Notes: a model not told the origin generated them from the letters alone. A DNA stretch of 44,834 nucleotides from Phycisphaerales bacterium (GCA_035628055.1 DASPKO010000156.1:1-44834), one strand, 5' to 3'. Shown: positions 11,311-39,256, counted from the stretch's first letter. Program-made: numbers and translations.

Positions 11311-11403
11311 GCGCACGTGGCGCTCTTTGGCGCGGGCCGCCGAGGGTGCGTTGACACCACGGCGGTTGGGCCCGGATTCTCGACGGCACCGGAGCGCGAT
11401 GAC

Positions 11404-14913: not shown

Positions 14914-14931
14914 GCAGGAGGTTCGGCAGAG

Positions 14932-16098
14932 ATGGTGCTGCTCCCGATCGACTACGCGGTGCGGAACCTGGGGCGCTCGCCCCTGCGCCTGTGGCTCTGG
15001 GTGTCGGGGAGCGCCCTGATGGTGCTGCTGGTGCTGGCCGCCGGGGCCTTCGTGCGCGGGATGCAGCACTCGCTGAGCGTGAGCGGCGCCAGCGACCGCG
15101 TGGTGCTGATCGGCGCCGGGAGCGAGGACTCGATCGAGCGCAGCGAGATCGCGGCCAACGTCGGGGCGCTGATCGCCGCCTCCGTGCCGGGTATCCGCAG
15201 CGTCGGGGGCGTCCCGCTCGTGTCGGCGGAGGTGCACATGGCCCTCCCGCTCAAGGCCTCGGTAGCGGCGGCGCAGGAGTCGATGGCGGTCGTGCGGGGC
15301 GTGACGAGCGCGGCCCTGCTCGTGCACACCCCGGTGCAGATCGTCGCGGGGCGGCTTCCCCGGGCCGGGGCCGACGAGCTGATGCCCGGGCGGATGGCGG
15401 CCGCCAAGCTGGGCCTGCCCGAGAGCGCCCTGGAGATCGGGCAGAGCCTGTGGATCGACGAGCGGCCCTGGGAGATCGTGGGGCGGTTCGTGGCCCCCGG
15501 GTCGGTGATGGAGAGCGAGGTGTGGACCGCGCTCACCGACCTGAAGATCGCGGCGCGGCGGGAGACGGACTCGACGGTGATCCTCGCGCTGGGGACCGCG
15601 GAGCTGGCGGACATCGACGCGTTCACGCGGCAGCGGCTGGACCTGGAGCTGGCGGCGATGCTCGAGAGCGAGTACTACGCCAAGCTGGCCCGGTTCTACG
15701 CCCCGGTGCGCGCGGTCGCCTGGGGCACCGCGGCGCTGATCGGATTGGGCGGGCTCTTCGGAGGGCTGAACATCATGTACGCGGCGTTCGCGTCGCGCAT
15801 CCGCGAGATGGCCATGCTCCGGTGCCTGGGGTACACGCGCGGGGCGATCATGCTCAGCCTGGTGCAGGAGTCGGTCATCGCCGCCGCGGCCGGCTCGCTG
15901 ATCGGGGCGGCGATCGGCCTGGGGGTGCTCGACGGCGTCGCGGTGCCGTTCTCGATGGGCGCGTTCGGACTGCGCGTGGACGCGGGCGCGCTGAGCGTGG
16001 GCCTGGGGGCCGGGCTGGGGATGGGGCTGGGCGGGGCGATCCTGCCGGCCTACAGGTCGCTGAAGGCACCGATCACCGAAGCGCTCAGGGCGGCATAG
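14932..16098 (+). CDS. ABC transporter permease, FtsX/MacB-type (permease 2)
   Basis: AGGAGG 9 nt upstream of ATG 14932. Same topology as permease 1 (N-terminal TM, periplasmic domain, three C-terminal TM helices, MLRCLGYTRGAIMLSLVQES). Confidence 0.8.
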   Translation: MVLLPIDYAVRNLGRSPLRLWLWVSGSALMVLLVLAAGAFVRGMQHSLSVSGASDRVVLIGAGSEDSIERSEIAANVGALIAASVPGIRSVGGVPLVSAEVHMALPLKASVAAAQESMAVVRGVTSAALLVHTPVQIVAGRLPRAGADELMPGRMAAAKLGLPESALEIGQSLWIDERPWEIVGRFVAPGSVMESEVWTALTDLKIAARRETDSTVILALGTAELADIDAFTRQRLDLELAAMLESEYYAKLARFYAPVRAVAWGTAALIGLGGLFGGLNIMYAAFASRIREMAMLRCLGYTRGAIMLSLVQESVIAAAAGSLIGAAIGLGVLDGVAVPFSMGAFGLRVDAGALSVGLGAGLGMGLGGAILPAYRSLKAPITEALRAA

Positions 16099-16173
16099 TT
16101 CCAGGCGGCGGGGCGATGACGGGCGACGTGGGACGGCGTGACAGAGCACAGCACTTCAACCAAAGGAGGTCCT

Positions 16174-16770
16174 ATGACGGTCAACCGGTTCGGTGGGATG
16201 TGCGCGGGGGCGTGCCTGGCGGGAGCGCTCCTGGGCGTGGGCGCGTGGCTCGGGGGGTGCGAGGAGAAACCCAACCCCGTCGGCGCCGAGACCTCGCGGC
16301 CGGCGGGCGCACCCGCGCCCGCGGGCGTGACCGTGCCCGCGAGCCTCTTCCTGGCGCAGGCGCCGGACGCGGCCCAGCCGGTGCGGGCCGCCAAGGCCGC
16401 CGCCAAGGCGGGCGACCGCGTCGTGCTGGTGGGCAAGATCGGCGGGACCGAGGACCCTTTCGCGCCCGAGCGGGCGATCTTCACGATCGTCGACCCGGCG
16501 ATGCCGACCTGCGCCGACAACCCGGCGGACTCGTGCAAGACGCCCTGGGACTACTGCTGTGAGGATCCCGACGACGTCGCCGCCAGCTCGGCGACGGTGC
16601 AGATCGTCGGTCCGGACGGGATGCCGCTGAAGGTGACCGCGCAGAACGCGGGCGGCCTGCGCCCGATGAGCACGGTGACGGTGGTCGGGACGGTGGCGCA
16701 GCGCGACGAACACACCCTGGTGGTGAACGCGACGGGCATCCACGTCGAGGCGCCCAAGCCGAGAGGGTGA
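16174..16770 (+). CDS. Hypothetical lipoprotein with a C-x7-C-x6-CC cluster, embedded in the efflux operon
   Basis: AAAGGAGG 5 nt upstream of ATG 16174. Signal peptide plus lipobox AWLGGC. The mature part has PTCADNPADSCKTPWDYCCED followed by beta-rich segments. No family recognised. Confidence 0.7.
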   Translation: MTVNRFGGMCAGACLAGALLGVGAWLGGCEEKPNPVGAETSRPAGAPAPAGVTVPASLFLAQAPDAAQPVRAAKAAAKAGDRVVLVGKIGGTEDPFAPERAIFTIVDPAMPTCADNPADSCKTPWDYCCEDPDDVAASSATVQIVGPDGMPLKVTAQNAGGLRPMSTVTVVGTVAQRDEHTLVVNATGIHVEAPKPRG

Positions 16771-16773
16771 GCG

Positions 16774-18180
16774 ATGGGATTTCCGAGAGTCTGCGCGCGC
16801 GACCCCGCCGGGGCGCTGGTCCTCAGTGCGCTCCTCGTCGTCCAGGCGCCGGGGTGCGCCAGCACCGACGCCGCCCGCGACCACTCCGAGGCGGCCGCCC
16901 TCGTCGGTGCCCGCGGGGGTGTGCCGGCCCCGGCCTGGGCGACACCGGGAGGGGCGGTCGAGTCGGCGCCGGCGGAGTGGGACGGCGTGAGCGACCTGGG
17001 AGAGGACCAGGCGGTCGCCCTGGCGCTGGCGCACAGCCCGATGATCCGCGCCGAGCTCGAACGGGTCTCGGCGGCCCGGGCCGACCTGGTCCAGGCGGGC
17101 CTGTTGCCGAACCCGATGGTCAACGTCTCGGCCTTGTGGCCGATCGGCGACCCGGACGCGGCGACGGCCTGGAGCGCCAGCGCCATGGAGCAGCTCTCGT
17201 GGCTCTGGCTGCGCGAGCCGCGGACGCGCGCGGCAAGCCACCGCCTGCGGGCCGCGGTGCTGGGCGTGAGCGACACGGCTTTGGGGCTTGTGTTCGAGGT
17301 CCGGGCGACACATGCCGGGGTCGTCTCGGCCCAGCGGGCGGCCACGGCGGCACTGGACGGGGCCCGGTCCGCCTCCGAGCTGGCGCGGCTGGCCCGGGCC
17401 CGGCTCGACGCCGGGGAGAGCACCGAGCCGGAGCTCAATCGGTTCCTGATCGAGGAGGCGGAGGCGCAGGCCCGGCGGGTCCGGCTGGCGGCGGAGTTCG
17501 AGGGCGGGAAGCGCCGGCTGCTCGGGCTGCTGGGCCGGAGCGGCGCGGACGCGGCCTGGGACGCGGTCGGCGGGCCGGCGAGCCGCTGGAGCGACCTGGA
17601 TGGGCTCGCGGAGGAGGAGGTGATCGGGCTGGCGCTGAGGCGGCGCCTCGATGCCGCCGAGGCGCGGGCGCTGGCCCGGGCCTCGGGGTACATGCTCGAC
17701 GAGGCCCGGCTGATGCGCCTGGGCGAGGCGAGCGCCGGGCCGATGTTCGAGCGCACCGAGGATCGCATGGAGATGGCGGGAGTCGGGCTGGCGGTGATGG
17801 TGCCGATCCTCGACACGGGGGCGGCCCGGGTGGCGCGGGGCCGGGCCGACTCGCGGCGGATGGCCCTCGAGGCCAACGAGCTCGCTGAGCGGGCGGTCCG
17901 CGAGGCCCGCGTGGGGTGGCACGAGGCGCGGGCGCGGGCCGAGGCCGCCGAGCGCTACGGGAGCGAGATCGTGCGCCGGCGCGAGCAGAACCTGCGGATC
18001 GCCGAGCAGAGTCTCGAGGCCGGGGAGGCCGACCTGACCGAGGTGCTGATGGCCCGGCTGGCGCTGAGCCAGGCCCGGGTGGAGCTGGCGCAGATGGAGG
18101 CCGAGGCGGCCGAGGCCTTCTTCGGACTCGAGCGCGCGGTGGGCGGGCGCCTGGCGCGGCGGGAGCCGCCCGCGCGCTAG
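16774..18180 (+). CDS. Outer membrane efflux protein, TolC/NodT (OMF) family lipoprotein
   Basis: Signal peptide plus lipobox VVQAPGC. Two OEP-type repeats (ALALAHSPMIRAELERVSAARADLVQAGLLPNP and later coiled segments). Starts 4 nt after the preceding stop. Confidence 0.8.
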   Translation: MGFPRVCARDPAGALVLSALLVVQAPGCASTDAARDHSEAAALVGARGGVPAPAWATPGGAVESAPAEWDGVSDLGEDQAVALALAHSPMIRAELERVSAARADLVQAGLLPNPMVNVSALWPIGDPDAATAWSASAMEQLSWLWLREPRTRAASHRLRAAVLGVSDTALGLVFEVRATHAGVVSAQRAATAALDGARSASELARLARARLDAGESTEPELNRFLIEEAEAQARRVRLAAEFEGGKRRLLGLLGRSGADAAWDAVGGPASRWSDLDGLAEEEVIGLALRRRLDAAEARALARASGYMLDEARLMRLGEASAGPMFERTEDRMEMAGVGLAVMVPILDTGAARVARGRADSRRMALEANELAERAVREARVGWHEARARAEAAERYGSEIVRRREQNLRIAEQSLEAGEADLTEVLMARLALSQARVELAQMEAEAAEAFFGLERAVGGRLARREPPAR

Positions 18181-19775
18181 CGGGCGTCGTCGTGGTCGCC
18201 CGCGGTGCCGGCGGGCGCCGGGTCGGGCTCACGCTCCGCGGGGGTGCGCGGCTGGGCGCGATCGGTGGGACGGAGGAGGTCCACGCGCGTGGGGGTGATA
18301 ATGTTCAGGCGCAGCGACTCGTCGTAGCGCGCCTCTCCCTCGACGCCGACGACGCGACCGATCTTTCCCTCGAGCCCCGGGTCGTCCTGGCCCGGGCTGT
18401 GCCCGCGCGCGGCGACGTAGGCGAGCGTGCGCGGGAAGCCGGCGTCGACCGAGACGATGCGGAACATCTTGGGCAGCCGAGTCCCGTCGTAGACGGTGCT
18501 GGGGAGGAGCGTCCCGACGACCGCGTAGACGCGGTTGACGGCCTCGGCCTGCTCGAGCACGACCTGGCCGCGCCGCTCGAAGCGGCGCCGCGACTCGGCG
18601 GCGCTGCGGAGCGACTCCTGCAGGTCGCTGCGGATGCGCAGGACCTCCAGGCGGGCGCGGAGGAACTCCGCGGTGCGCCGGTCATCCTCGCCCGAGCCGA
18701 GCGCCCCGATGGCTTTCTCGAACTCGGCGATCACGCCCCCGAGCTCGGCCTCGCGGATGGGCTGCGTCCGCACCTGCTCGTAGAGGGAGGCGAGGGCGTC
18801 GATCGAGCCCATGTCCGGCTCGCGCGGGGGCGCGGGCTGGGGGCGAGCCGGAGCGGGAATGCCGACCGGGTCGCCCATCGTCGTGGTGGGCGGAACGGCG
18901 GGATCGATCACCCCGGGCGCGGGCGCGCCGCCCGGAGCGGCGCCCGCCGGACTGCCCCCAGGCGTGCTGGGGAGGTCGATCACGCCCGGCGCCGAAGGGG
19001 GGGGCGGGAGGGGGCGACGGACGGGGCCGGGGAGCTGCTCGGAGTCGGGGTTCGCCGGGGCGGGCGCGCCTCGCGGGGGCGCGGCCACAGAAGGTGCGGG
19101 TGGCACGGGCTCGGCCGGAGCGCCCGGGCGGGGCGCGGGGACTCCGGAGGTGCCGGCGGGAGTGTCGGCGGCGGGTGGACGGCCCTCGGCCCCGGCGGCC
19201 TCGGCGGGCGTGGCGCGCCGCGTGGCCTCGGGCTTCACGTAGCCGCGGGCCTCGGGCGGCGCGGGGACCAGGTAGCCGTACACCTTGCCATCGGCGGTCT
19301 TGAGCGTCTGGAGGACCTGGAACCTGGTTCCCGCGGGGACGGGCGTCTCGAGGAGCGTCCACCAGTTGGCGCGCTCCCCGCCCGAGGCGTTAGCCGCCAT
19401 GAGCTGCGAGGGCGCGGCGAGCGTGAGTGAGGACCCGTCGGGCTCGGGCCGGGCCTCCTCGGCCTTGACGAACGCGGGCACGCCGGCGGGATAGTGGACC
19501 CGGAGCCAGTCGCCCACCTGGGCGTCGACCTTGAGCAGGTCGCCCGACTTGAGCGAGCGCACGGGGTAGTACGGCAGCCCGGCCCCCGCCTTCAGCGGCA
19601 GGTTGTCGGCCGTGACCACGACCCAGTACGGCTCGACCTTCTGGGCCGGCTGGGCGAGGGCCGGCTCGGCGAGCATCACCAGCACGCCGGCGCCGGCCAG
19701 TCCCTGGGCGAGGCCGGCACAGGCGAAGGCGGTGGCGGCGAGGGCGTGTCCGGGACGGCGCGCGCTGTGAGTCAT
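18177..19775 (-). CDS. Secreted protein with bacterial SH3-like domains and a long Pro-rich linker
   Basis: ATG 19775, signal peptide ending in ALAQ. YWVVVTADNLPLKAGAGLPYYPVRSLKSGDLLKVDAQVGDWLRVHYP resembles SH3_3-type domains. A Pro/Ala-rich linker of about 150 aa is followed by a helical and beta-rich C-terminal half. Confidence 0.6.
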   Translation of the reverse strand: MTHSARRPGHALAATAFACAGLAQGLAGAGVLVMLAEPALAQPAQKVEPYWVVVTADNLPLKAGAGLPYYPVRSLKSGDLLKVDAQVGDWLRVHYPAGVPAFVKAEEARPEPDGSSLTLAAPSQLMAANASGGERANWWTLLETPVPAGTRFQVLQTLKTADGKVYGYLVPAPPEARGYVKPEATRRATPAEAAGAEGRPPAADTPAGTSGVPAPRPGAPAEPVPPAPSVAAPPRGAPAPANPDSEQLPGPVRRPLPPPPSAPGVIDLPSTPGGSPAGAAPGGAPAPGVIDPAVPPTTTMGDPVGIPAPARPQPAPPREPDMGSIDALASLYEQVRTQPIREAELGGVIAEFEKAIGALGSGEDDRRTAEFLRARLEVLRIRSDLQESLRSAAESRRRFERRGQVVLEQAEAVNRVYAVVGTLLPSTVYDGTRLPKMFRIVSVDAGFPRTLAYVAARGHSPGQDDPGLEGKIGRVVGVEGEARYDESLRLNIITPTRVDLLRPTDRAQPRTPAEREPDPAPAGTAGDHDDAR

Positions 19776-19994
19776 ACCTATCTCTCCATCGGGCCCATGG
19801 ACGGGGCGGCCCACGTCATGCTACCGGGGCGGGCGGCGGCGCGACGCGACGTCCGGCCGCACGGGGATGGCGGGAGCGCCCCGGGCTCGGGCCCGGGGGA
19901 ACATCGGCTCGGGCGGGGCGCCGGTCTGTATGCTTTGTGCCCGGCGCCGACCGGGTGACCGGATCGGACCGGCCCACACATACCCTGGCGACGC

Positions 19995-22022
19995 ATGATC
20001 AACCCCCGACCCCGTGCGTCCCGCCGTGCCGGCGGGATCCTGACCCTGACGCTGCCCCCCGCGGCGGTGGCCCTGCTCGTGGCCGGCTGCGGTCGCCCCC
20101 TGTTCTCCGGCGACGACGACACCCTCCGCCGGTCGATCGCCGAGAGCGCGGGCCGGGAACTGGCCGACGCCCGCCGGACCGACGAGCAGACGCAGCTCAC
20201 CCGGCCCGACCGCGTGGAGGCCCTGGGGATCAAGCCGTCGATCCGGGAGCAACTGGAAGGGATGGCGGGGCCGGGCTCGTACGGCTCGATGCAGCCGCGG
20301 CTGGGAGATCCCCTGGTGCCGGGCGACCAGAAGATCGTGGCGGTGAGCCTGGAGCGGGCGATCGCGGCGACGGTGCGGAACAACCTGGACGTGGAGTTTG
20401 CGCGGATCGACCCGGCGATCGCCTCGGCCCGCGTGGTGCAGGCCCAGGCCGCCTTCGACTGGGTGCTCTTCTCGAACTCCCAGTGGACCTCGATCGACTC
20501 GCCGCGCACGAGCTCCAACGCCTTCTCGCAGGCGGTGCGCAACGACGAGCAGCAGCAGGTGGACGTGGGCGTGGGGCTGCGGCGGCGCCTGACCACGGGC
20601 GGCCAGCTCTCGATCGCGCACAACTTCCGGTACACCGACGTCGAGACGAGCGGGCTGACGACGTTCCCCGACCCGGCCTACGAGCCCTCGGTCACCCTGC
20701 AGCTCGACCAGCCGCTGCTGCGCAACAGCGGCTCGGACGTGGCCCTCTCGCAGGTCCGGCTCAACCGCAACGCGGAGCTCGAGGAGATCCAGGCGCTCAA
20801 GCAGCAACTGCTGCTGAGCGTGACGCAGACCGAGGAGGCGTACTGGACGCTGGTGCGGGCCTACAACGACCTGCTCATCCTGCAGCGGCTCCTGGAGCGC
20901 GGGACCGCGACCTCGGACTTCCTGCAGCGCCGGCGGGCGCTGGCCCGCCCGGCGCACGTCTCGGACGCCGCGGCGAACGTGCAGACCCGCCAGGCCAACG
21001 TGATCCGCGCCCAGCGCACGCTGCGGCAGGCCTCCAACCGCCTCAAGCAGCTCATGAACGACCCGCAGCTCACCGTCGGGTCGGAGGTGCTGGTCCTTCC
21101 CGCCGACGTGGCGATCGACGCGCCCATCCGCTTCAACCTCGCCGACGCGGTGCTGACGGCCCTGCGGAACCGACCCGAGATCCAGCGGGCCCTGCTCTCG
21201 ATCGACAACACGTCCATCCGCCAGGAGCTGGCCGAGAACGCACTCCTGCCCCTGCTGGACCTGCGCGTGCAGACGCGGGTCGGCGCCCTGGGCGAGGACA
21301 CGGGGGACGCGTACAACGAGCTGGACGCGGACTTCGTGGACTACCTCGTTAGCCTCAACTTCGAGCTGCCGGTCGGGAACCGCGCGGCGCAGGCGACGGA
21401 GCGCGAGCGGCACCTGCAGCGGGTGCAGTCGGTGATCGCCTACCGGAATACCTTGCAGGGCGTGGTCGCGGAGGTCCGCAACGCCCTGATCGAGATCACC
21501 ACGAACTACCAGCTCATCGAGCAGACGCGCGCGGCCCGCGTGGCCGCCGCCGAGAACCTCCGCACGATCGAGCTCGAGCAGGAGCTGCTCGAGGAGATCA
21601 CCACGGACTTCCTGGACCTGCGGCTGCGGCGCCAGCAACTGCTGGCCCTGGCCGAGCAGGAGGAGGTCCAGTCGCTCATCGACTACAACACGTCGCTGGC
21701 GCGGCTGTACGCCGCGATGGGCACGGCGTTGGCGCGCAACCGCATTCTCCTCGAGGTTCCCGACGCCCCCCAGCTCGCGCCCACCAGCCCGCTCTTCCCG
21801 CTCTACCCGCTCGCCCCCGAGTGGCAGCGCCCGCGGGACTACGACCGGGAGGTGGGCGGGGCCGCCGGCGAGGCCGAGGCCGCGCCGGCTGACCAGACCG
21901 CGGGCGCGCCGGGCGACGCCGGGGCACCGGCCGAGCCCGACCCACAACCGGAGCCGCCGGCGGCGCGGGAGCCCGACGAGGCGAGCGAGCCACCCCTGCC
22001 CGGCGAGCCCGTGCGCCCGTAG
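19995..22022 (+). CDS. TolC-like outer membrane efflux protein (long form, lipoprotein signal, Pro/Glu-rich tail)
   Basis: ATG 19995, lipobox LLVAGCG. OEP-type repeat starts SLERAIAATVRNNLDVEFARIDPAIASARV and NLADAVLTALRNRPEIQRALLSID. The C-terminal 100 aa or so are low-complexity and Pro/Ala/Glu-rich. Confidence 0.75.
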   Translation: MINPRPRASRRAGGILTLTLPPAAVALLVAGCGRPLFSGDDDTLRRSIAESAGRELADARRTDEQTQLTRPDRVEALGIKPSIREQLEGMAGPGSYGSMQPRLGDPLVPGDQKIVAVSLERAIAATVRNNLDVEFARIDPAIASARVVQAQAAFDWVLFSNSQWTSIDSPRTSSNAFSQAVRNDEQQQVDVGVGLRRRLTTGGQLSIAHNFRYTDVETSGLTTFPDPAYEPSVTLQLDQPLLRNSGSDVALSQVRLNRNAELEEIQALKQQLLLSVTQTEEAYWTLVRAYNDLLILQRLLERGTATSDFLQRRRALARPAHVSDAAANVQTRQANVIRAQRTLRQASNRLKQLMNDPQLTVGSEVLVLPADVAIDAPIRFNLADAVLTALRNRPEIQRALLSIDNTSIRQELAENALLPLLDLRVQTRVGALGEDTGDAYNELDADFVDYLVSLNFELPVGNRAAQATERERHLQRVQSVIAYRNTLQGVVAEVRNALIEITTNYQLIEQTRAARVAAAENLRTIELEQELLEEITTDFLDLRLRRQQLLALAEQEEVQSLIDYNTSLARLYAAMGTALARNRILLEVPDAPQLAPTSPLFPLYPLAPEWQRPRDYDREVGGAAGEAEAAPADQTAGAPGDAGAPAEPDPQPEPPAAREPDEASEPPLPGEPVRP

Positions 22023-22057: not shown

Positions 22058-22891
22058 CTACCGCGCCCCGGCGCCCGGGCGCGGCTTGACCATCCGGCGC
22101 AGGATCGGCGTCTCGATGCCCGGGCAGGCCACGGCGGCGGCCATGGCGACCCGGATCAGCCGGCCGCGGAAACCGGTCCAGACTTCCGGGCGCGGGCGGC
22201 GCAGGCAGGCGACGGTCTCCCGGGCCACCAGGGCGGGGTCCTGCATGAGGCCGTCGGGGGTGTGGGCGGCCCCGATGTTGCCGGTGCCGCGGAGCGTGGC
22301 CCGGAACTCCGTGCGCGTGCCGATCGGGTGCACGGTGCTCGCGCGAATCCCCTCACCGCGCAGCTCCAGGTCCATGGCGCGGCCGAGGTGGCTCTGCGCG
22401 GCCTTGCTGGCCCCGTAGGCCGAGTAGTACGGGATCGGGAGCTTGGCCAGGCACGATGAGCAGATGAGCACGTGTCCGCGGTGCGGCCCGGGGTTGGCGC
22501 GCAGGACCGGGAGGGCCGGACGGATGGTGTTGAGGGTCCCGTAGAAGTTGGTCTCGAGGATGGCGCGGAAGTCGGCGTCGCTGGTGAGCTCGACAGGCCC
22601 CTCGACGCCGTACCCCGCGTTGGCATAGACGGCATAGAGCGACCCGAACGTCTCGCGCGCGCGGGCCACCAGGCGGGCGCCGTCGTTAGGATTCGTCACG
22701 TCGCAGGCGACGGCAAGGGCCACGCCGCCGCGGGCGCGGATCTGTTCGGCAAGGCTCTCCAGACGGTCGAGGCGCCGCGCCCCCAGGGCGACGGGCATGC
22801 CCGCCGCGGCGCAGGCGAGGGCGGTCGCAGCGCCGATGCCGGAGGAAGCGCCCGTGATGGCGATGGGCCGGCCCCGGAGGTCGATGGGCAT
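22058..22891 (-). CDS. Short-chain dehydrogenase/reductase (SDR) family oxidoreductase
   Basis: TGASSGIG cofactor motif, NAG, catalytic S...YSAYGASKAA (YxxxK). 277 aa. Confidence 0.9.
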   Translation of the reverse strand: MPIDLRGRPIAITGASSGIGAATALACAAAGMPVALGARRLDRLESLAEQIRARGGVALAVACDVTNPNDGARLVARARETFGSLYAVYANAGYGVEGPVELTSDADFRAILETNFYGTLNTIRPALPVLRANPGPHRGHVLICSSCLAKLPIPYYSAYGASKAAQSHLGRAMDLELRGEGIRASTVHPIGTRTEFRATLRGTGNIGAAHTPDGLMQDPALVARETVACLRRPRPEVWTGFRGRLIRVAMAAAVACPGIETPILRRMVKPRPGAGAR

Positions 22892-22957
22892 GCGCGATCA
22901 GCATAGAGCCGGGCGGCCCGCCGCCCTGGTGCGGGCACCGTCTAGAGAAGACCGGCA

Positions 22958-22996
22958 AGCAAAGAGAGCCGGGGCGGGACGGGCCCGCACCGGCTC
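22958..22996 (-). terminator. Putative intrinsic terminator downstream of the entericidin-like gene
   Basis: On the minus strand: GAGCCGG-t-GCGGG [CCCGT] CCCGC-c-CCGGCTC (12 bp with one mismatch), followed by TCTTTGCTT. Confidence 0.5.
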
Positions 22997-23069
22997 GGAG
23001 ACGTTGGCTGGGATCGAGCGTTGGCCACCGAGGACCGGCGGCGGCCGCGGCCCGAGTGGCTCGGGTGGC

Positions 23070-23234
23070 TCAGTCGCGGACGTCTCGCGAGGTGTCGCTG
23101 ATGCCCTCGCCGGCGCTCTCGATGTCCTCGCCCGCACCCTCGACGGTGTTGCAGGCCGGCACCGCCAGAATCGCGGCGGCGATGAGGGGCAGGGCGAGCA
23201 GGGTCAGGAGCAGACGGAGCGAGCGGGTCTTCAT
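23070..23234 (-). CDS. Entericidin A/B-like small lipoprotein (54 aa; absent from the ORF track)
   Basis: AAAAGGAGAAACCC precedes ATG 23234. Translation MKTRSLRLLLTLLALPLIAAAILAVPACNTVEGAGEDIESAGEGISDTSRDVRD. A signal peptide is followed by Cys-Asn-Thr and a Gly/Glu-rich amphipathic tail, as in EcnA/EcnB. Confidence 0.7.
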   Translation of the reverse strand: MKTRSLRLLLTLLALPLIAAAILAVPACNTVEGAGEDIESAGEGISDTSRDVRD

Positions 23235-23514
23235 GGGTTTCTCCTTTTCGGGACGCGGCGGACGGTGCCGGTCCCCTCACCGATCAGGACTCAACGATGC
23301 CTCGACCGTACCCCTCCGGTGGATTGTCCCCACTAGGAACAAGGCCCGAATGTGGGGGGCGTTCGGGGGGAGCTCGCCGGCGCGGTGGGCGCCGTCCTTC
23401 CGGGCCGGTCGGCATCGCGTGGCGTGATCGATTGGGTGCTCTCTCACCCCGTTCGTGCGGCCTTGGGGCCGCCCGTGCCGGTAACCGGCGCGGAGGAACC
23501 TAGACTCCGGATGG

Positions 23515-24819
23515 ATGCCGCGCGTCAGCTACGAATCCAACCCGAAGATCGCGGTCGTGCTGGACATGCTGGCGGAAATGAGCCGCGCCGAAACATCGGT
23601 GGACTCGTTTCTCGCCTTCATGACCCGGTTCTGGCAGGTGCGCTCGATCGACCTGTTCGTGGGCGTGACCGTCCAGGACCTCCCCCCGGGGGACTACCGC
23701 GTCGTGTACCAGATCAAGTCGGCGGAGCTGGCGGCCGGCGACCGGCGGAGGCTCGATGAGGCGGCCATGGCGCCCAGCGCCGAGCTCCCGATCCGCCGGG
23801 GCGGGCTGATCGGGGAGATCGTGACCGAGCAGCGGCCGCTGCTGCTGCATCACCTGGCGCTGGAGCACGACCCGGCCCTGGGCAGCGACGCGGCGGAGGT
23901 GCGCGCCTGCATGGCGCTCCCCATCTATGAGCAGGGGCGGATCGTCGAGTGGGCCCTGGGCTTCAGCGTGGACCCGGAGGGCTTCACCCCCGAGGTGCTC
24001 GAGGAGGCCCTGCTGACGGCGAACCTGCTCGGGCTGGTGCAGCGGCATCTGTGGTCGCTGGGGCAGATCCGCCAGCTCAACCAGCGGCTCACCTCGCAGT
24101 TCGAAGAGGTGGCCCGGGTGCAGCAGCAGCTCCTGCCCGTGCGCCACCCGCCCATCCCCGGGGTCGTCCTGTCGACGAGCTATCTCCCCAGCGACGTCGC
24201 CGGGGGCGACTATTACGACTTCTTCGAGCTGGCCGACGGGCGCTGGGGCTTGCTGGTCGCCGACGCCTCCGGGCACGGCGTGGGGGCCGCGACCGTGATG
24301 GCGATGCTGCACGCCTTCCTGCACTCGTACCCGGCGCTGGAGCGCGGGCCGGCCTCGGTGCTGGGCTGGGTGAACCGGCGCCTGGCCGCGGCGCGGATGG
24401 ACGGGAGCTTCGTCACGGCGCTCTTCGCGATCTACGACCCGCGCACGCGCGAGCTGGTGTACGCGCGGGCGGGGCACCCGCTCCCGCGGCTCAAGCCCGC
24501 GGGGCGCGGGTCGGCGGTGATCGAGCTCAACGGGTCGGCGGGGCTCCCGCTGGGCATCGCCCCCGAGTATCACGTGGAGGAGTCGCGCGTGGTGCTCGAG
24601 CCCGGGCACACCCTGGTGCTGTTCACGGACGGGATCACCGAGGCCTTCTCGCCGCGCCGCGAGATGTTCGGCACGGGCGGGCTCGACGAGGCCCTCGAGG
24701 CCTGCACGGGCGAGCCGGACTGCGTGGTGGACACGGTGCACAACGCCCTCTACCAGCACACCGGGCGGCGCACGCGCGATGACGACCAGACCCTGGTGGC
24801 GCTGAAGGTGGTTCACTAG
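23515..24819 (+). CDS. GAF-like sensor fused to a PPM/SpoIIE-type serine phosphatase (RsbU-like)
   Basis: The N-terminal 190 aa or so are GAF-like. A coiled linker QLNQRLTSQFEEVARVQQQLLP follows. Phosphatase blocks are GGDYYDF, LLVADASGHGVGAA, SFVTALFAIYD, LVLFTDGITEA and RDDDQTLVALKV. Confidence 0.85.
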   Translation: MPRVSYESNPKIAVVLDMLAEMSRAETSVDSFLAFMTRFWQVRSIDLFVGVTVQDLPPGDYRVVYQIKSAELAAGDRRRLDEAAMAPSAELPIRRGGLIGEIVTEQRPLLLHHLALEHDPALGSDAAEVRACMALPIYEQGRIVEWALGFSVDPEGFTPEVLEEALLTANLLGLVQRHLWSLGQIRQLNQRLTSQFEEVARVQQQLLPVRHPPIPGVVLSTSYLPSDVAGGDYYDFFELADGRWGLLVADASGHGVGAATVMAMLHAFLHSYPALERGPASVLGWVNRRLAAARMDGSFVTALFAIYDPRTRELVYARAGHPLPRLKPAGRGSAVIELNGSAGLPLGIAPEYHVEESRVVLEPGHTLVLFTDGITEAFSPRREMFGTGGLDEALEACTGEPDCVVDTVHNALYQHTGRRTRDDDQTLVALKVVH

Positions 24820-24861
24820 GCTCCGGCGCCACGCCGGCGCGGGCGGGGAGATCCCTTCGAC

Positions 24862-26517
24862 ATGAACCTGACGCGGTTCTTCGACCACTGGGGGATCACC
24901 GAGAACCCCTTCCGCGGCGAGGAGGCCCGCCAGGACCCGGTCTTCATGCGGCTGGGCGTGCGGGGAGCGGAGGGCGCGGCCCTGGCGGCCGGCCCGGGCG
25001 CCCCGGCCCAGGCGGGCGACGGCGCCAGGCCCGGCACACCTCCGGGGCCCGCGCTGCCGCGGGCGGCGCACTCGGACTTCGAGAAGATCGCGGGGGACTT
25101 CGACCGGCCCTCGACCTCCATCGTCTTCGGCGAGAAGGGGAGCGGCAAGACCGCGATCCGCCTGCAACTGGCCGAGCGCGTGGGCGAGTTCAACCGCGCC
25201 CGGCCGCGCGGGCGGTGCCTGCTGGTCAGCTACGACGACCTCAACCCCACCCTCGATCGCTTCGCGGAGCGCCAGGGGGCGACGGACCGGCGCGCCAGCG
25301 TCACCGACCTGCTCAAGCGCCTGCGCCTGGTCGATCACATCGACGCGCTGCTGGCCCTGGTGGTCCCGCCGCTGATCGACGCGCTGCTGGGCGATGGCCC
25401 GGGGCGGGACAGCGCCGTCGACCTCGAGCTGGGCGCCGAGCCGTGGAAGGCGGTGCGGCGCCTCCCCCCCGCGCGGCGGCGCGACGTGCTGCTGCTACAG
25501 GCGGTCTACGACCGCCCCGACCAGGCCGAGCAGCGCACGCGGCGCCTGCGCCGGCGCTTGCGACTCCCCCCGCGGCCGGTGGCCCTGCTCTGGGACGCGC
25601 TGGTGCTCGTCGGCTGGCTTCCCGCGGCGGCGGTCCTGCTGTGGACGAGCACGGGCCTGCCCAGCGGGCTCTTAACGCCCTACGGCTCGCTGGCCCTGGC
25701 GCTGGCGGCGGCCTGGCTGCTGGTGCTCGCCAAGCGGCTGGGCTGGGACCGCCTGGCGTGGCTGCGCGCCGGGCACCGCCTGCGCCGCCAGGTTCGCGTG
25801 ATCGGGCGGGGCGACCGATCCTGGGGCGCCTCGGTCCGCCAGCTCCACGCCGCGGGCGTCGACCTCTCCGCCCTGCCGGTCACCGACTCGGACGACCAGC
25901 GCTACGCGATGCTGGAGCGCGTGCGCGCGGTGCTGGCGGGCTTCGGGTACGCGAGCCTGATCGTCGTGATCGACCGCGTCGACGAGCCGACCCTGATCAG
26001 CGGCGACCCGGAGCGCATGCGCGCCATGGTCTGGCCGCTGCTCAACAACAAGTTCCTCCAGCAGCCAGGGGTCGGGATCAAGATGCTCCTGCCGATCGAG
26101 CTGCGCCACGCGCTCTTCCGCGAGTCGGCGGCTTTCTTCCAGGAGGCGCGGCTGGACAAGCAGAACCTGATCGAGCGCCTGAGCTGGACGGGCTCGATGC
26201 TCTACGACCTTTGCAACGCCCGCCTGGCGGCCTGCTCGGACCCCGCGCGGGCTCCGGCGGGAATCAGCGGGCGGCCGGTGACGCTGCTGGACCTCTTCGC
26301 CGAGGACGTCACCCGCCAGGACCTGGTCGAGGCCCTGGACCAGATGCACCAGCCGCGCGACGCCTTCAAGCTCCTCTACCAGTGCCTGCTCGAGCACTGC
26401 TCGAACGTCACCGAGGACCAGGCGCAGTGGCGCATCCCGCGCCTGATCCTCGAGACGGTAAAGAAGGGCCAGGCCGAGCGGGTGCGACAGCTCTACCGCG
26501 GCGTGCGCCCGGCCTAA
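24862..26517 (+). CDS. P-loop NTPase with a two-helix membrane insertion between Walker A and Walker B (KAP-like topology)
   Basis: N-terminal FFDHWGITENPF (ExeA/AAA_22-like start). Walker A GEKGSGKT at 25129-25152. Hydrophobic helices LLWDALVLVGWLPAAAVLLW and YGSLALALAAAWLLVLA at about 25579-25731. Walker B-like LIVVIDRVDE at about 25957-25986. Lies 42 nt downstream of the phosphatase gene. Confidence 0.75.
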   Translation: MNLTRFFDHWGITENPFRGEEARQDPVFMRLGVRGAEGAALAAGPGAPAQAGDGARPGTPPGPALPRAAHSDFEKIAGDFDRPSTSIVFGEKGSGKTAIRLQLAERVGEFNRARPRGRCLLVSYDDLNPTLDRFAERQGATDRRASVTDLLKRLRLVDHIDALLALVVPPLIDALLGDGPGRDSAVDLELGAEPWKAVRRLPPARRRDVLLLQAVYDRPDQAEQRTRRLRRRLRLPPRPVALLWDALVLVGWLPAAAVLLWTSTGLPSGLLTPYGSLALALAAAWLLVLAKRLGWDRLAWLRAGHRLRRQVRVIGRGDRSWGASVRQLHAAGVDLSALPVTDSDDQRYAMLERVRAVLAGFGYASLIVVIDRVDEPTLISGDPERMRAMVWPLLNNKFLQQPGVGIKMLLPIELRHALFRESAAFFQEARLDKQNLIERLSWTGSMLYDLCNARLAACSDPARAPAGISGRPVTLLDLFAEDVTRQDLVEALDQMHQPRDAFKLLYQCLLEHCSNVTEDQAQWRIPRLILETVKKGQAERVRQLYRGVRPA

Positions 26518-26586
26518 GGCGGGGACGCCGGCCGATCGGTGCGGCACGCGGCGACGGCCAGGGGGCGTGGTCGCTCGGGCACGCGC

Positions 26587-26826
26587 TCACTTGTCCTTGA
26601 TCGGGTTCTGCGCCGGCGGGTTCGGAGAGGCCGTCCCGCTGGTGCTCCCGGCCCCGCCCATGTCCGAGCTGCTCGAGCCGGCGGTGTCGGCCCCCGACTT
26701 GGTCGAGCGCGAGCGGCTGGAGGAGTCCCCCGCCGAGGCGTTGGAGGGGAACTGGCGCTGGTGGCTGGTGCGATTGCCCCGGTCGCCGGCGTTCATGTTG
26801 GTGCGGCGGGTGTTGTCGGTTTCCAT
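26587..26826 (-). CDS. Small hydrophilic low-complexity protein (79 aa), function unknown
   Basis: ATG 26826. Translation METDNTRRTNMNAGDRGNRTSHQRQFPSNASAGDSSSRSRSTKSGADTAGSSSSDMGGAGSTSGTASPNPPAQNPIKDK. Very strong G/C at codon position 3 supports coding despite the low complexity. There is no hydrophobic segment. Confidence 0.55.
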   Translation of the reverse strand: METDNTRRTNMNAGDRGNRTSHQRQFPSNASAGDSSSRSRSTKSGADTAGSSSSDMGGAGSTSGTASPNPPAQNPIKDK

Positions 26827-26898
26827 GCCTGCTTCTACGCGGGCCGTCCCGGGCGAGTCTGTAGGGCGTGGTGCGACACCCGGAGCGGGCACACCGCA

Positions 26899-27422
26899 CT
26901 ACAGGCCGTAGTACGTGACGATCGCACTGGCAGGGCATGTTCCGAGCATGAGCAGGGAGCATCGCCGCGGGGAGCCAGTACGGCCAGGGATGCGTGCTCA
27001 GGGGAGGGCCGATGCGCCTGGGCAGCACGAGCCCGACGAAGCGGACGGACAGGACGAGCCAGAGCGGGAAGGCCCCCGATGAGGATGAGGCCGGCGGCGT
27101 TGACCTCATCGCCCAGCGCCCGGATCCCGTGCATGACGGCGCCGAACCAGGCAATCGGGACCGGCACAGCCAGGTGCGGCCATGCCGATCCGACCGCCTC
27201 CTGCAGGGGCGAGCATCCCACGCGCCACTGCGAGCGCACGATCTCGTGCCCACATTCGGAGCACATCACCGCGGTGGTTCGCGGGTCGTTGGGGAACGCC
27301 GCCGGGTACCCGCATTCGCGACAGAGACCGGTGCGCGCCTGCTTCTGGGAACCGAAATAGACCGACGCGGGATCGGTGCCCGTGTCACGCGCGCAGCGTA
27401 GGCGGATTCTGAACACCGGCAC
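26899..27422 (-). pseudogene. Zinc-ribbon membrane protein interrupted by two apparent +1 frameshifts (pseudogene or homopolymer sequencing errors)
   Basis: Frame A encodes CRECGYPAAFPNDPRTTAVMCSECGHEI (CxxC-x16-CxxC) and a TM helix WPHLAVPVPIAWFGAVMHGI. After the C5/G5 run at 27073-27077, high GC3 and hydrophobic sequence continue in the next frame (AFPLWLVLSVRFVGLVL...WPYWLPAAM). After the GGG at 26956-26958 they continue in the third frame (LLMLGTCPASAIVTYYGL, stop 26899-26901). The start (GTG 27422 or 27416) is uncertain. Confidence 0.4.
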
Positions 27423-27493
27423 GACAGTCGCGCCGCCGCGCGGGAAACGGTCCGTGCGCGGGCGCGCGGGGCCGCGCGCGGTCGAGTCCGACC

Positions 27494-27985
27494 CTACCGG
27501 CGCCGGCGGGCCGCGGCGGCGCCGCCGAGCAGGAGCAGGGCGGCCGCTCCGGGCGCGGGAACGAGCGCGAGCTGGCCGCGGATGGCGCCGCTGGGGAAGG
27601 GCGAGTTGTGGAGGTTGACGTAGAAGCCGGCCGGGTTGGCCAGCACGTTGTTGAGGTCGGGGTCCTGGAGCCCGAACCCGGTGAACTGGGAGTTGAAATC
27701 GACCACGATCCCGCCGGCCACGCCGGCCGGGGCCTGGTGGATGTGTGCCCCGGTCAGGGGCAGAGCGATGTTCTGGGCCGTGAAGATCCAGTTGACGCTG
27801 GGGTTGGGCGTCGCGGCGGTGTCGATGAAGAGGTCGGCCACGCCGGTGCCGTCGGGGTCGCCAGGACCGGGCACTTCGTTGGGGCCGTTCATGATGGCCC
27901 GCAGATGGACGATGTCGGCGCTGGCGAGGGCGGCCAGGCCGAAGGAAGCGGCGAGAGCGGTGGCGCAGACGGCAACCCGGTTCAT
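27494..27985 (-). CDS. CHRD domain protein with C-terminal PEP-CTERM sorting signal
   Basis: AGGAG 7 nt upstream of ATG 27985. Signal peptide MNRVAVCATALAASFGLAALASA. CHRD-like blocks are LRAIMNGPNEVPGPGDPDGTG, TGAHIHQAPAGVAGGIVV and FYVNLHNSPFPSGAIRGQL. The C-terminus VPAPGAAALLLLGGAAAARRRR has the pattern VPxP + TM + Arg cluster. Confidence 0.7.
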   Translation of the reverse strand: MNRVAVCATALAASFGLAALASADIVHLRAIMNGPNEVPGPGDPDGTGVADLFIDTAATPNPSVNWIFTAQNIALPLTGAHIHQAPAGVAGGIVVDFNSQFTGFGLQDPDLNNVLANPAGFYVNLHNSPFPSGAIRGQLALVPAPGAAALLLLGGAAAARRRR

Positions 27986-29566: not shown

Positions 29567-32590
<3,024 letters not shown>

Positions 32591-32717: not shown

Positions 32718-33590
32718 GTGCCGCCACGGGTGCGCCTGACGGATAACGAGCGGGGCAATACGCTCGGGCTCTCGCGCCGCGATCTGGACGAGCTCATCGC
32801 CGAGATTGAGATCGCGCAGCGGGACGATCCGGGCGTGCACCGGCGCTTCCGCCGACGGCAGTATCGCCAGTTGGCCCTGGCCCTCCAGGTGCATCAGCCC
32901 GGGGGCAGCACGTCGACGTTCCCCGTGGTCTCCCGGAATATCTCGCGGACGGGCATGGCGGTGCTGCACCGGGCCTACATCCACCTGGGCGTGCGGGTGC
33001 AGGTCGCTCTCCCACGGCGCGCCGCGGCCACGCTCAGCGTGAGCGCCCACGTGGTCCGCTGCCGGCACGTCTCGGGGATGGTGCACGAGATCGGGCTGCA
33101 GTTCGATCATCCCATCCAGCTTCGCGACCTGGTCGACCTCGAGCTCAACGACGATTGGCTCTCGCTCGAGACCGTGGAGCCGGCCACCCTGGTGGGCTCG
33201 GTCCTGCTGGCCGACCCGTCCGCCGAGGACCGGGGCCTGCTGCGGGGGCACCTGCGCGGGGCGCGGCTCTCGATCACCGAGGCGGAGACGCCCGAGGCCG
33301 CCCTGGCCGCCGCGGCCCGGCCCAATGACCTGATCATCACGGAATACTTCTTCGGCGGGCGGCCCGCGGAGGACCTGCTGCTCTCCCTCCGCCAGCTCGC
33401 GCCGCGGACCCCCCTGCTGGTGCTGACCGCGGACGTCTCGGAGGTGACACGCCGCCGGCTGGGCACGCTCGGGGCGGCCTCGCTGCTCAAGCCCGTGGAT
33501 GAACTCACCGCCCTGCGGGCCATCGGGGAGTTCCTGGGGGCGGGGGGACCGGCCGGGGCCAAGGCCTCCGGGCTGGCCCGCACCGCGTGA
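32718..33590 (+). CDS. PilZ domain + receiver-like domain protein (phospho-acceptor Asp replaced by Glu)
   Basis: AAGGAG 7 nt upstream of GTG 32718. PilZ motifs RRRQYR ... NISRTG. C-terminal CheY-like fold markers are VLLADPS, DLIITEY (E209, codon 33342-33344, where the conserved Asp is expected), LLVLTAD and LLKP. Confidence 0.75.
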   Translation: MPPRVRLTDNERGNTLGLSRRDLDELIAEIEIAQRDDPGVHRRFRRRQYRQLALALQVHQPGGSTSTFPVVSRNISRTGMAVLHRAYIHLGVRVQVALPRRAAATLSVSAHVVRCRHVSGMVHEIGLQFDHPIQLRDLVDLELNDDWLSLETVEPATLVGSVLLADPSAEDRGLLRGHLRGARLSITEAETPEAALAAAARPNDLIITEYFFGGRPAEDLLLSLRQLAPRTPLLVLTADVSEVTRRRLGTLGAASLLKPVDELTALRAIGEFLGAGGPAGAKASGLARTA

Positions 33591-33691
33591 GCGACTCAAG
33601 CCGGGGCCGGATCGCCCCGAAATAACTCCGCCACGGTGGCGGCCACGACCGGCTTGCCCACGGAACCAGACTCGAACAGCGGAGCAAGCGC

Positions 33692-35089
33692 GTGTCCACT
33701 AGCGATCCGGTGACGTCCCAGCAGCTCCACCTCTCGGGGGGGTTCGGGCGTGCCGCCAACTCCGCCCGCTCCGGGTACCTGCCGATCCCGCTCACGCGCG
33801 TGCCGATCGCCGCCCTGAAGAACCTCCCGCTGTACGTGCGCGTCCGGCACACGCCGGACGACAAGGCCGCGTTCCGTCTGTATCGGGCCCCGGAGATCAC
33901 CTTCACCGACTCGGACCGGCAGCGGCTCATCGCCGGGGGGACGCAGTTCCTGTACATCCAGATGGCGGACCAGAGCCGCTTCCGCCAGCAGACCGTCGAG
34001 TGCCTGACCGACCTGGCCTCGGACCCGTCCACGGCGGTCGCGGCCCGCTCGGCGATCATCTACAAGACCAGCATCGAGCTGGTGAACGAGCTGCTGGCCG
34101 AGCCCGACCTGGCCGCCAAGGCCCCGCGGCTCGAGGTCGTCTCCAAGTCCATCACGGCGCTGGTCATCAACGATCAGAACGCCTTCTCCCACCTCTTCGC
34201 CGCCTCGCACCACGACTTCTACACCGCGACCCACATGGTGAACGTGGCCACGTGGATGACCACCCTGGCCTACGCCATGGGCCGGCGCAGCACCGACGAG
34301 CTGAACCTGATCTGCCAGGCGGGGCTCCTGCACGACATCGGCAAGCTCTACATCCCCGAGGACCTGCTCAACAAGAAGGGCAAGCTCGAGGACCGCGAGT
34401 GGGCCGTGATCCGCGAGCACCCCGTGCGCGGCTGCGAGCACCTCGCCAAGTTCGAGGGCATCGACCCGCTCACGTTCACCGTGACGCGCCAGCACCACGA
34501 GCGCATGGATGGCACCGGGTATCCCGACGGGCTCAAGGGCGATCAGATCCACCCGGTCAGCCGCATCTGCGCCGTGGTCGATTCCTTCGACGCCATGACC
34601 GCGTTCCGCCCCTTCAAGACGCGGACGTTCACCGTGGAACAGGCGATGGAGGTGCTCGAGTCCGAGACCCCCGCGAAGTACGACCCCGAGGTCTTCGCCG
34701 CCTGGAAGGCCCTGCTCGAGTCCGCCCCCCCCGAGGCCGACGTCTCCCCCAGCGCCGAGGCCCCGGCGGCCGGAGGCGGGGCCGAACGCCGGCAGTTCCA
34801 GCGCTACCCGCTTCACACGCCGGCCCGGGTCCACCCCCTGGCGGCGGGGTCGGGGCGCTGGAACGAGATGCCGGCCATCCAGGCGGTGACCCACAGCATC
34901 TCCCGGGCGGGACTGGGGTTCCTCAGCCCGTCGCCGATCCAGATCGGCGAGTTCGTGAGGCTGTACCTCTCCACGCCCGCCGACAAGAACTTCATGGGCC
35001 AGATCGTGCGCAGCCGCTCCTACCGGGACGGCTGGTTCGAGGTCGGGCTCTGCTTCTCCCAGCTCCCCGCGATGGGCCAGGCGGCCTGA
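33692..35089 (+). CDS. HD-GYP domain c-di-GMP phosphodiesterase with C-terminal PilZ-like domain
   Basis: GGAG 7 nt upstream of GTG 33692. THMVNVA, AGLLHDIGK, REHP, HHERMDGTGYPDGL (HD-GYP signature) and VVDSFDAMT. C-terminal RRQFQR ... HSISRAG (PilZ-like, with His in place of D/N). Confidence 0.85.
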   Translation: MSTSDPVTSQQLHLSGGFGRAANSARSGYLPIPLTRVPIAALKNLPLYVRVRHTPDDKAAFRLYRAPEITFTDSDRQRLIAGGTQFLYIQMADQSRFRQQTVECLTDLASDPSTAVAARSAIIYKTSIELVNELLAEPDLAAKAPRLEVVSKSITALVINDQNAFSHLFAASHHDFYTATHMVNVATWMTTLAYAMGRRSTDELNLICQAGLLHDIGKLYIPEDLLNKKGKLEDREWAVIREHPVRGCEHLAKFEGIDPLTFTVTRQHHERMDGTGYPDGLKGDQIHPVSRICAVVDSFDAMTAFRPFKTRTFTVEQAMEVLESETPAKYDPEVFAAWKALLESAPPEADVSPSAEAPAAGGGAERRQFQRYPLHTPARVHPLAAGSGRWNEMPAIQAVTHSISRAGLGFLSPSPIQIGEFVRLYLSTPADKNFMGQIVRSRSYRDGWFEVGLCFSQLPAMGQAA

Positions 35090-35174
35090 CGCCGGCGCCC
35101 GCGCGGGCGCGGCAGAAGCCCGGCCCCGGATCGGCCGATGTCTGCACTACGGGCCGTCAGGAGGCCCCGCGACC

Positions 35175-37466: not shown

Positions 37467-37693
37467 GCACCGGCGCGGCGGCGGGCGGTGGCCGGTCGAG
37501 CCCGGCCCGTCTGCGCGTCAGCGCCGCGGTTTTTCCGTCGAGCCCGCCCGCGCGGTCCCGCTCATGCCCCGGCGCGCCCGGGAGCCTATCGCCCCCGGGC
37601 CCCGGCAACCGGGGCCTCGGCGGACCGGTACACGGGCTCGTCGACGCCGCATGTCACAGGGGCCACGCCCCACCGCCCCGGGAGACCGCCGCC

Positions 37694-38980: not shown

Positions 38981-39256
38981 GAATCTCACGGCGAGGTCTT
39001 CCGCCGACGACGGCCCGGGGCTGCGCGCCCGCGCGGAGCGCCGCTGCTTATCGGCCTGCCCGTGGATCGAGGGCGTCACCGCCGGCCCCCCTTTCCGGCG
39101 CAAACGGCGCGGGCGGCGCGGGCTTCGCCCCGCTTCACCGCGCGGCTGGTGCGGGCCGGGAGGGAATTGCACGCTTCAGCATCGGGTGGGCGCAGTGGAC
39201 CGCGACTCACCGACGGGCAGGACGAGCCGACCCTCGGCCTGGCTGCCCCTGCCAAG

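Follow-up and report, generated by a model that had tools for sequence, protein, structure and literature searches.

In this study, we analysed a 44,834-nucleotide stretch of DNA from a Phycisphaerales bacterium (GCA_035628055.1, DASPKO010000156.1:1-44834; hereafter the window, by which the whole stretch is meant), in which the gene for a GAF-like/PP2C serine phosphatase is followed by the gene for a 551-residue P-loop NTPase. An earlier note on this DNA had suggested that the two genes form an uncharacterised membrane signalling or surveillance pair and had likened the NTPase to the KAP family. Our results suggest instead, with a probability of roughly 0.72, that these are two independent genes which came to lie side by side by chance in one Phycisphaerales genome, and that the NTPase represents a stand-alone, membrane-anchored AAA+/STAND-like family of unassigned role. 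The proposed phosphatase-NTPase signalling pair is unsupported, and what value remains belongs to the NTPase family. Transmembrane helices in the nucleotide-binding domain are rare among P-loop NTPases, and to our knowledge such an architecture was until recently known only from the KAP and YobI/Tmn families, both of which are now tied to phage defence. The family described here appears to share this architecture while forming a sequence lineage of its own; it is found widely, and with good conservation, in Planctomycetota and Opitutales and is not covered by a Pfam model.

Genomic arrangement of the phosphatase and NTPase genes

Both open reading frames (ORFs) were recovered on the same strand and 42 nt apart, as the earlier note had described them (Table 1), and both are of coding type, the GC content at first, second and third codon positions being 0.74/0.45/0.97 in the phosphatase ORF and 0.76/0.49/0.96 in the NTPase ORF. 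The window as a whole has a GC content of about 73%, and its coding frames were recognised by a third-position GC (GC3) of at least 0.85 together with a second-position GC of at most 0.62.

The first gene encodes an ordinary cytoplasmic PP2C serine phosphatase of the RsbU/SpoIIE type. Its translation contains the motifs GGDYYDF, ADASGHG, FTDGITEA and DDQTLV, and the SpoIIE model of Pfam (PF07228) matches residues 241-432 with an E-value of 7e-45 (153.7 bits against a cut-off of 25). An AlphaFold2 model built from 45 orthologues, with a mean predicted local distance difference test score (pLDDT) of 89.2, shows an N-terminal alpha/beta sandwich, a long linker helix at residues 159-206 and then the PP2C domain. 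The top 50 Foldseek matches listed for this model were all PP2C domains, headed by those of Pseudomonas aeruginosa RssB, Mycobacterium tuberculosis Rv1364c (its RsbU domain), SiaA and SpoIIE (E-values of 1e-14 to 1e-10). The N-terminal region is probably a GAF sensor, as its predicted secondary structure is compatible with that fold and GAF_2 (PF13185; E 4.8e-6, 27.3 bits against 28.6) scores just under its cut-off, with GAF (PF01590; E 8e-4, 20.4 bits against 22.4) also below its own. The earlier reading of this gene as a PPM/SpoIIE phosphatase with a GAF-like N-terminus is supported, motifs, PF07228 and Foldseek agreeing on the phosphatase part. The orthologue group extends throughout Phycisphaerales at 44-56% identity over the full length, under the source names 'RsbU' or 'PP2C family phosphatase'. 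Like the RsbU, RssB, SiaA and SpoIIE phosphatases, the protein carries a sensor domain and a long helix ahead of the PP2C domain; its sensor is GAF-like, whereas the known types have an RsbU N-domain, a receiver or a HAMP domain in that place.

A lineage-specific operon, in which the phosphatase would control the membrane NTPase or be controlled by it, could be proposed from the arrangement in the window. The genes share a strand, the 42-nt spacer holds a GGAG Shine-Dalgarno-like site, and neither a terminator-like nor a promoter-like site lies between them, although the consensus scan of 22800-27500, which found neither kind of site in either direction, carries no information in a planctomycete with a GC content of 73%. 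Moreover, unlike typical RsbU-type phosphatase loci, this one has no nearby partner genes: a STAS protein, an anti-sigma kinase and a sigma factor were all absent from the window ORFs scanned with Pfam, in agreement with what the earlier note had stated, and the window holds no further small coding-type ORFs. The missing STAS gene is, however, little informative, since the partners of PP2C phosphatases are often encoded elsewhere.

Comparison among genomes argues against such an operon, which we consider unlikely. The loci of the NTPase family that we compared numbered 27, namely 24 distinct loci with 6-8 kb of flanking sequence (21 from a scan of one genome per species, combined with the loci of close orthologues) and three further ones, from Lignipirellula cremea, a Pirellulales metagenome-assembled genome (MAG) and a TARA Phycisphaerae contig. 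At none of them did the 6-8 kb around the NTPase orthologue yield a SpoIIE homologue, the check at 24 being a single-sequence tblastn search with the window phosphatase at E<=1e-3. The neighbourhoods of four close NTPase orthologues (57-65% identity) likewise held no SpoIIE gene, and Pfam recognised no SpoIIE domain in those immediate neighbours of NTPase orthologues that were examined. Conversely, none of three loci of phosphatase orthologues (50-55% identity) had the NTPase beside it; two of them had a CxxCxxCC (PF03692) protein downstream of the phosphatase and the third a response-regulator SpoIIE protein. In GCA_019636655.1 both genes are present and unlinked, the NTPase orthologue lying on the 1.28-Mb contig JAHBXB010000001 and that of the phosphatase on the 1.06-Mb contig JAHBXB010000002. 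The co-occurrence in relatives that a conserved two-gene module would lead one to expect is absent from the loci compared, an outcome that the earlier note had itself named as refuting its proposal.

Three considerations tell against the independence of the two genes. The shared strand, the 42-nt distance and the lack of a terminator-like site between them leave room for co-transcription and for a link confined to this lineage; the single-sequence tblastn search made at 24 of the 27 loci would overlook PP2C genes of very divergent sequence; and the closest relatives compared were 65% (NTPase) and 56% (phosphatase) identical, so that the adjacency might persist in nearer genomes. Since the adjacency is unconserved, any co-transcription in the window would be uninformative on a functional link and would amount to a local arrangement that lacks conserved meaning. 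As a separate observation, the CxxCxxCC protein, together with a small unannotated ORF, directly follows the phosphatase orthologue at two loci (L027, 7302-7874, and L028, 7353-7850); it is a candidate conserved partner of the phosphatase and is missing from the window.

A P-loop NTPase family with a hydrophobic hairpin

The second gene encodes an AAA+/STAND-like P-loop protein without a characterised close relative. The features that the earlier note had listed for it, that is, a length of 551 residues, an N-terminal motif (FFDHWGITENPF), the Walker A motif GEKGSGKT and the Walker B-like LIVVIDRVDE, were all located (Table 1), and both Walker motifs, the second in the form hhhhDRVDE, are kept in all 69 diverse family sequences; in the model they occupy the strand-loop elements where they would be expected. 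Between the N-terminal motif and Walker A sits an Ala/Gly/Pro-rich insert of low complexity, and most representatives align only from about residue 67 of the query. Searches of a database clustered at 90% identity returned more than 1900 homologues at E<=0.001. The family, whose members are about 500 residues long, counts 609 cluster representatives at 50% identity, of which 159 match at E<=1e-30, and nearly all are named 'hypothetical protein'. Members occur in Phycisphaerales (Phycisphaerae), Pirellulales, Opitutales/Puniceicoccaceae and Pseudohongiella, with conservation of 35-65% identity, and a set of six proteins drawn from across them shows many invariant blocks at a pairwise identity of about 34%.

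Known profiles indicate the general class of the protein and little beyond it. At E<=1, Pfam gave only AAA_16, AAA_25, Zeta_toxin and AAA_22 for the window protein, none of which reached its cut-off (AAA_16, 21.1 bits against a gathering threshold of 32.6; AAA_22, 12.9 against 27). Among the 69 relatives, weak matches to AAA_22 and AAA_16 were seen in 66, and weak matches to NACHT, NPHP3_N or ATPase_2 in 25-34. The AlphaFold2 model from the 69 sequences (pLDDT 89.8; predicted template modelling score, pTM, 0.88) runs through a strand at residues 86-90, Walker A with a helix at 96-113, a strand at 118-123, a helical insertion at 128-359, the Walker B strand at 363-370, a strand at 404-411 and a helical C-terminal domain. 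Foldseek of this model against PDB and BFVD returned nothing at E<=1e-3, and its top weak matches (E>0.1) were AAA+ proteins such as ORC, FtsH, p97, Msp1, TnsC and RdrA; neither phmmer nor a profile search detected a relative among PDB sequences, so a solved structural relative was found by none of the three approaches. A literature search on 'Sll1717', on planctomycete P-loop membrane proteins and on SpoIIE-GAF proteins likewise found nothing relevant.

Two strongly hydrophobic helices and an Arg-rich stretch between the Walker motifs, as claimed before, are present in the window NTPase, and their position is conserved across the family. We scored segments by the Kyte-Doolittle (KD) hydropathy of 19-residue stretches (19-mers), by a simplified Hessa-type scale, with a sum of at most 3 kcal/mol as the stricter cut, and by the charge of the flanks. 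Between the Walker motifs of the window protein, strongly hydrophobic 19-mers occur only at residues 240-264 and 270-293 (25579-25740), with RTRRLRRRLRLPPRP ahead of the pair and KRLGWDRLAWLRAGHRLRRQVR after it. Among 80 diverse full-length members, the top two hydrophobic 19-mers between the Walker motifs lie at about +135 to +150 and +165 to +185 after Walker A, their sequence being unconserved. At the stricter cut, 55 of the 61 scorable members have at least one segment between the Walker motifs and 32 have at least two, and no member has one elsewhere; the occurrence of hydrophobic segments in this interval is beyond chance. Two clear segments are seen in 49 members. In these, the charges of the two 20-residue flanks average +5 and +4.7, and the loop that separates the segments is short and close to neutral (median length, 9 residues; mean charge, -0.2); 47 of the 49 combine positive flanks with a short neutral loop. 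As the positive-inside rule applied to such flanks and loop predicts an in-out-in hairpin, these segments would span the membrane and leave the NTPase in the cytoplasm.

Two points weaken this assignment. The segments of the window protein itself are marginal, at +2.2 and +1.7 kcal/mol, against -3.9 to +1.7 for the helices of the FtsX and CstA proteins encoded in the same window, and the assignment of membrane insertion draws on hydropathy and charge only. Alternatively, the hairpin might not span the membrane and might instead form a helical element, buried or amphipathic, in an oligomer that is soluble or bound peripherally, a reading with which these marginal scores agree, as does the single strongly hydrophobic 19-mer in 23 of the 61 scorable members and the lack of any in six. 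A helical pair whose position is kept and whose sequence is not, however, follows the pattern of lipid-facing helices, and many members are very hydrophobic (KD up to 2.85, with negative Hessa-type sums). Flanks of about +5 with a short neutral loop in 47 of 49 members also speak against a non-spanning element, and the soluble proteins of the window, scored in the same way, have no comparable hydrophobic segment. We regard a non-spanning hairpin as the least probable of the alternatives considered here.

Relation to known membrane NTPases and possible role

An ExeA/AAA_22-like beginning, as noted before, can be recognised in the protein: like ExeA/GspA, it has an F..G...PF-type motif ahead of Walker A, and the weak AAA_22 match recurs in 66 of the 69 members. 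ExeA has a single transmembrane helix that follows the ATPase domain and does not lie within it, and, compared with ExeA, AAA_16 and NACHT STAND NTPases, all profile matches of the window protein stay under the gathering cut-offs. The KAP NTPases, which include PifA and Kidins220, were reportedly described by Aravind and colleagues in 2004 as kin of the STAND and AAA+ classes, and for many of them a function on the cytoplasmic side of the membrane has been proposed. Membership of this family, which the earlier note had favoured, was rejected on Pfam scans of the window protein and 69 relatives: KAP_NTPase (PF07693) gave no match at E<=1 on the former and was outside the 25 families most often matched by the latter. 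The likeness is architectural only, as helices within the P-loop domain are a KAP-like trait which is common to the YobI family too, whereas the hhhhDRVDE form of Walker B and the lack of a fused effector or repeat domain distinguish the window protein from KAP proteins. The sole link by name is one automatic UniRef entry, 'KAP family P-loop domain protein', on the Lignipirellula orthologue.

Many KAP NTPases, for example EF_KAP, have transmembrane helices within or beside the NTPase domain (PMC13552941), and in YobI/Tmn proteins two transmembrane helices interrupt the P-loop domain and accessory domains are lacking, Tmn being a phage defence gene whose product forms a decameric ring with a Mg2+-exporting mechanism (PMC13001434). 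Like Tmn, the window NTPase has two hydrophobic helices that follow Walker A within the P-loop domain, and it stands alone, without accessory domains or an obligate partner. Unlike Tmn, it shows no sequence match to that family, either with PADLOC Tmn or with Pfam YobI at E<=1. An assignment to Tmn or another known defence system was therefore rejected, the sole PADLOC match at E<=1 being a marginal one to mad8 (E 0.0018).

The only named families with significant similarity to the window protein are DS41_1 and Sll1717, whose proteins are about 450-500 residues long. In NCBIfam, NF053860 (DS41_1 anti-phage protein) matched with an E-value of 7e-24 and 84.6 bits against an equivalog cut-off of 370, and NF047389 (P-loop ATPase Sll1717 family) with 46.1 bits against a subfamily cut-off of 75. 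Ten further members scored 75-109 bits with DS41_1 and 30-67 bits with the Sll1717 family; several of them match DS41_1 end to end, from the N-terminal region via Walker A and Walker B into the helical C-terminal domain. Each of the ten is about 100 residues longer than the matched span of the DS41_1 profile (for example, 476 residues against 371 profile positions), and these extra residues are consistent with the hairpin being an insertion absent from DS41_1, without proving it. With the nearest named families so far under their cut-offs, the NTPase does not fall into any well-characterised family, and it is best regarded as an undescribed lineage in its own right among the membrane-inserted P-loop NTPases.

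DS-41 ('AAA2') is a single Escherichia coli gene of about 500 residues that was validated as a one-gene defence system in the DefensePredictor study (PMC13092281). The NTPase might accordingly be a membrane P-loop anti-phage protein of the KAP, Tmn/YobI or DS-41-like kind, in which NTP hydrolysis alters membrane or ion balance upon infection. Such a role would fit its best named matches, the KAP name in UniRef, and the helices inside the P-loop, which are a hallmark of Tmn/YobI and many KAP proteins (PMC13001434, PMC13552941). However, the scores against DS41_1 and the Sll1717 family lie far under the cut-offs, KAP_NTPase is unmatched and PADLOC offers only mad8. Whereas DS-41 is a defence gene of E. 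coli, the context of the present family is chromosomal and housekeeping: every locus seen has such surroundings, with no defence island or mobile element. No homologue was found in plasmid and phage collections, on which ground an origin from a mobile element was rejected; in the window itself, no integrase, transposase or recognised defence gene was found among the ORFs scanned. High full-length conservation across phyla is also untypical of defence genes. Given the core-like conservation, the housekeeping neighbours and the absence from mobile elements, a cellular role seems probable and a role in defence distinctly improbable.

The neighbours of the NTPase in other genomes do not single out a partner. 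In the 24 distinct loci, those of Phycisphaerales have a phosphomannomutase/phosphoglucomutase gene upstream on the same strand in ten cases (L001, L002, L003, L006, L008, L010, L011, L014, L018 and L026), a UvrD/PcrA gene nearby in eight and a DinG/YoaA-type helicase gene in five. Elsewhere, the neighbours include a dynamin-family GTPase (Opitutales), MacB/HlyD (Pseudohongiella) and, upstream in one Pirellulaceae MAG, a Wzc-like polysaccharide tyrosine autokinase, with unrelated genes at further loci. The recurrence of envelope and polysaccharide genes is suggestive; since no neighbour is common to different orders across the loci compared, the pattern was taken as local synteny and a conserved functional neighbour was rejected. 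The MacB/HlyD pair precedes the Pseudohongiella orthologue, and the window also has an HlyD/MacB cluster, which is probably a coincidence.

Under the preferred reading of two independent genes, the hairpin would anchor an NTPase that is predicted to be catalytically competent to the inner membrane, on its cytoplasmic side. The protein would act without a fixed partner, probably as a homo-oligomer, and may serve as a nucleotide-driven switch or an assembly factor for a membrane-associated process. We propose a partnerless oligomeric switch because Walker A, Walker B and several arginines are invariant, the gene is chromosomal and has no conserved neighbour, and the core is AAA+/STAND-like. It is far more speculative, and in our view very unlikely, that the family is a housekeeping, membrane-embedded relative of DS-41 which gained its hairpin independently of KAP and YobI/Tmn, forms a Tmn-like oligomeric ring coupling NTP hydrolysis to membrane or ion state in bacteria of the Planctomycetes-Verrucomicrobia-Chlamydiae (PVC) group, and in this lineage came under the control of a GAF-sensor PP2C phosphatase via operon fusion. 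The family makes a fair candidate for a function of this architecture that lies outside defence and is associated with the envelope, and the orthologue in the cultured isolate Lignipirellula cremea might permit an experimental test.

Feature coordinates and other genes of the window

Table 1. Features of the phosphatase-NTPase region and of the three consecutive PilZ/HD-GYP genes, in window coordinates (AF2, AlphaFold2; aa, amino acids).
Feature	Position	Strand	Support or remarks
GAF-like/PP2C (SpoIIE/RsbU-type) serine phosphatase	23515..24819	+	ORF of 434 aa; GC3 0.97; SpoIIE PF07228; AF2 model; Foldseek
GAF-like sensor region of phosphatase, aa 79-174 (probable)	23749..24036	+	GAF_2 and GAF Pfam matches; model
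PP2C/SpoIIE catalytic domain, aa 241-432	24235..24810	+	PF07228; Foldseek
Intergenic spacer, 42 nt	24820..24861	+	GGAG Shine-Dalgarno-like site; no terminator-like site
P-loop NTPase, uncharacterised family, hydrophobic hairpin between Walker A and Walker B	24862..26517	+	ORF of 551 aa; GC3 0.96; homologues; AF2 model
Conserved N-terminal motif FFDHWGITENPF, aa 6-17	24877..24912	+	N15, P16 and F17 invariant across family
Ala/Gly/Pro-rich low-complexity insert, aa 30-67	24949..25062	+	model disordered, pLDDT <50 at aa 42-57; absent in most homologues
Walker A GEKGSGKT, aa 90-97	25129..25152	+	invariant G90, K92, G93, G95, K96, T97
Hydrophobic helix 1, aa 240-264, Arg-rich flank ahead	25579..25653	+	KD 2.06; Hessa-type +2.2; model helices aa 239-263
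Hydrophobic helix 2, aa 270-293, running into Arg-rich, predicted cytoplasmic helix to aa 310	25669..25740	+	KD 1.79; Hessa-type +1.7; model helix aa 273-310
Walker B LIVVIDRVDE, aa 366-375	25957..25986	+	invariant D371, R372, D374, E375, P376; model strand aa 363-370
C-terminal helical (lid-like) domain	26191..26496	+	invariant R454, C458, R499, F502, H512, C513; model
PilZ protein	32718-33590	+	Pfam
HD-GYP protein with C-terminal PilZ	33692-35089	+	Pfam
PilZ-receiver-HD-GYP protein	35175-37466	+	Pfam

The context of the pair in the window is one of housekeeping and envelope genes. These comprise the end of a DAHP synthase gene, 6-phosphogluconate dehydrogenase, tRNA-His, IspF, a LuxR-type response regulator, glycosyltransferases, an HlyD/MacB/FtsX exporter with two OEP genes and a short-chain dehydrogenase (SDR), then the phosphatase and the NTPase, a CHRD protein, a PyrR-like phosphoribosyltransferase, gyrB, three PilZ/HD-GYP genes, gpsA and cstA. 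The exporter cluster (11317-22022) consists of HlyD, an ABC ATPase and two FtsX permeases, followed by the two OEP genes, which are split by an unannotated Pro/Ala-rich ORF of 545 residues on the opposite strand.

The gyrB gene (29573-32590, plus strand) encodes 1005 residues, with about 300 Ala/Pro/Gly-rich residues between the Toprim domain (residues 516-627) and the C-terminal domain (933-994); its listed GTG start may add an N-terminal extension, the match to the ATPase domain beginning at about residue 115. Right after it, the three genes related to cyclic di-GMP stand in a row on the plus strand (32718-37466). The roughly 4 kb from the last of these to gpsA (37586-41590) contain the ORFs 37586-39172 (minus), 39458-41590 (minus) and 39784-41520 (plus), which have no Pfam match and all fail the codon-position GC filter; the two on the minus strand are also without an NCBIfam match. 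Close to the end of the window, an 86-residue ORF (44558-44818, minus) has a GC3 of 0.97 with low GC at the first and second codon positions, a duplicated S.FLS.WF motif and a sub-threshold NCBIfam match to a GC-type dockerin domain (23.1 bits against 29). Near the other end, the 6-phosphogluconate dehydrogenase ORF (2526-4259, minus) overlaps tRNA-His (4217-4291, minus) at its start as listed; its Pfam match begins at residue 74, and the true start probably lies downstream of the listed one.

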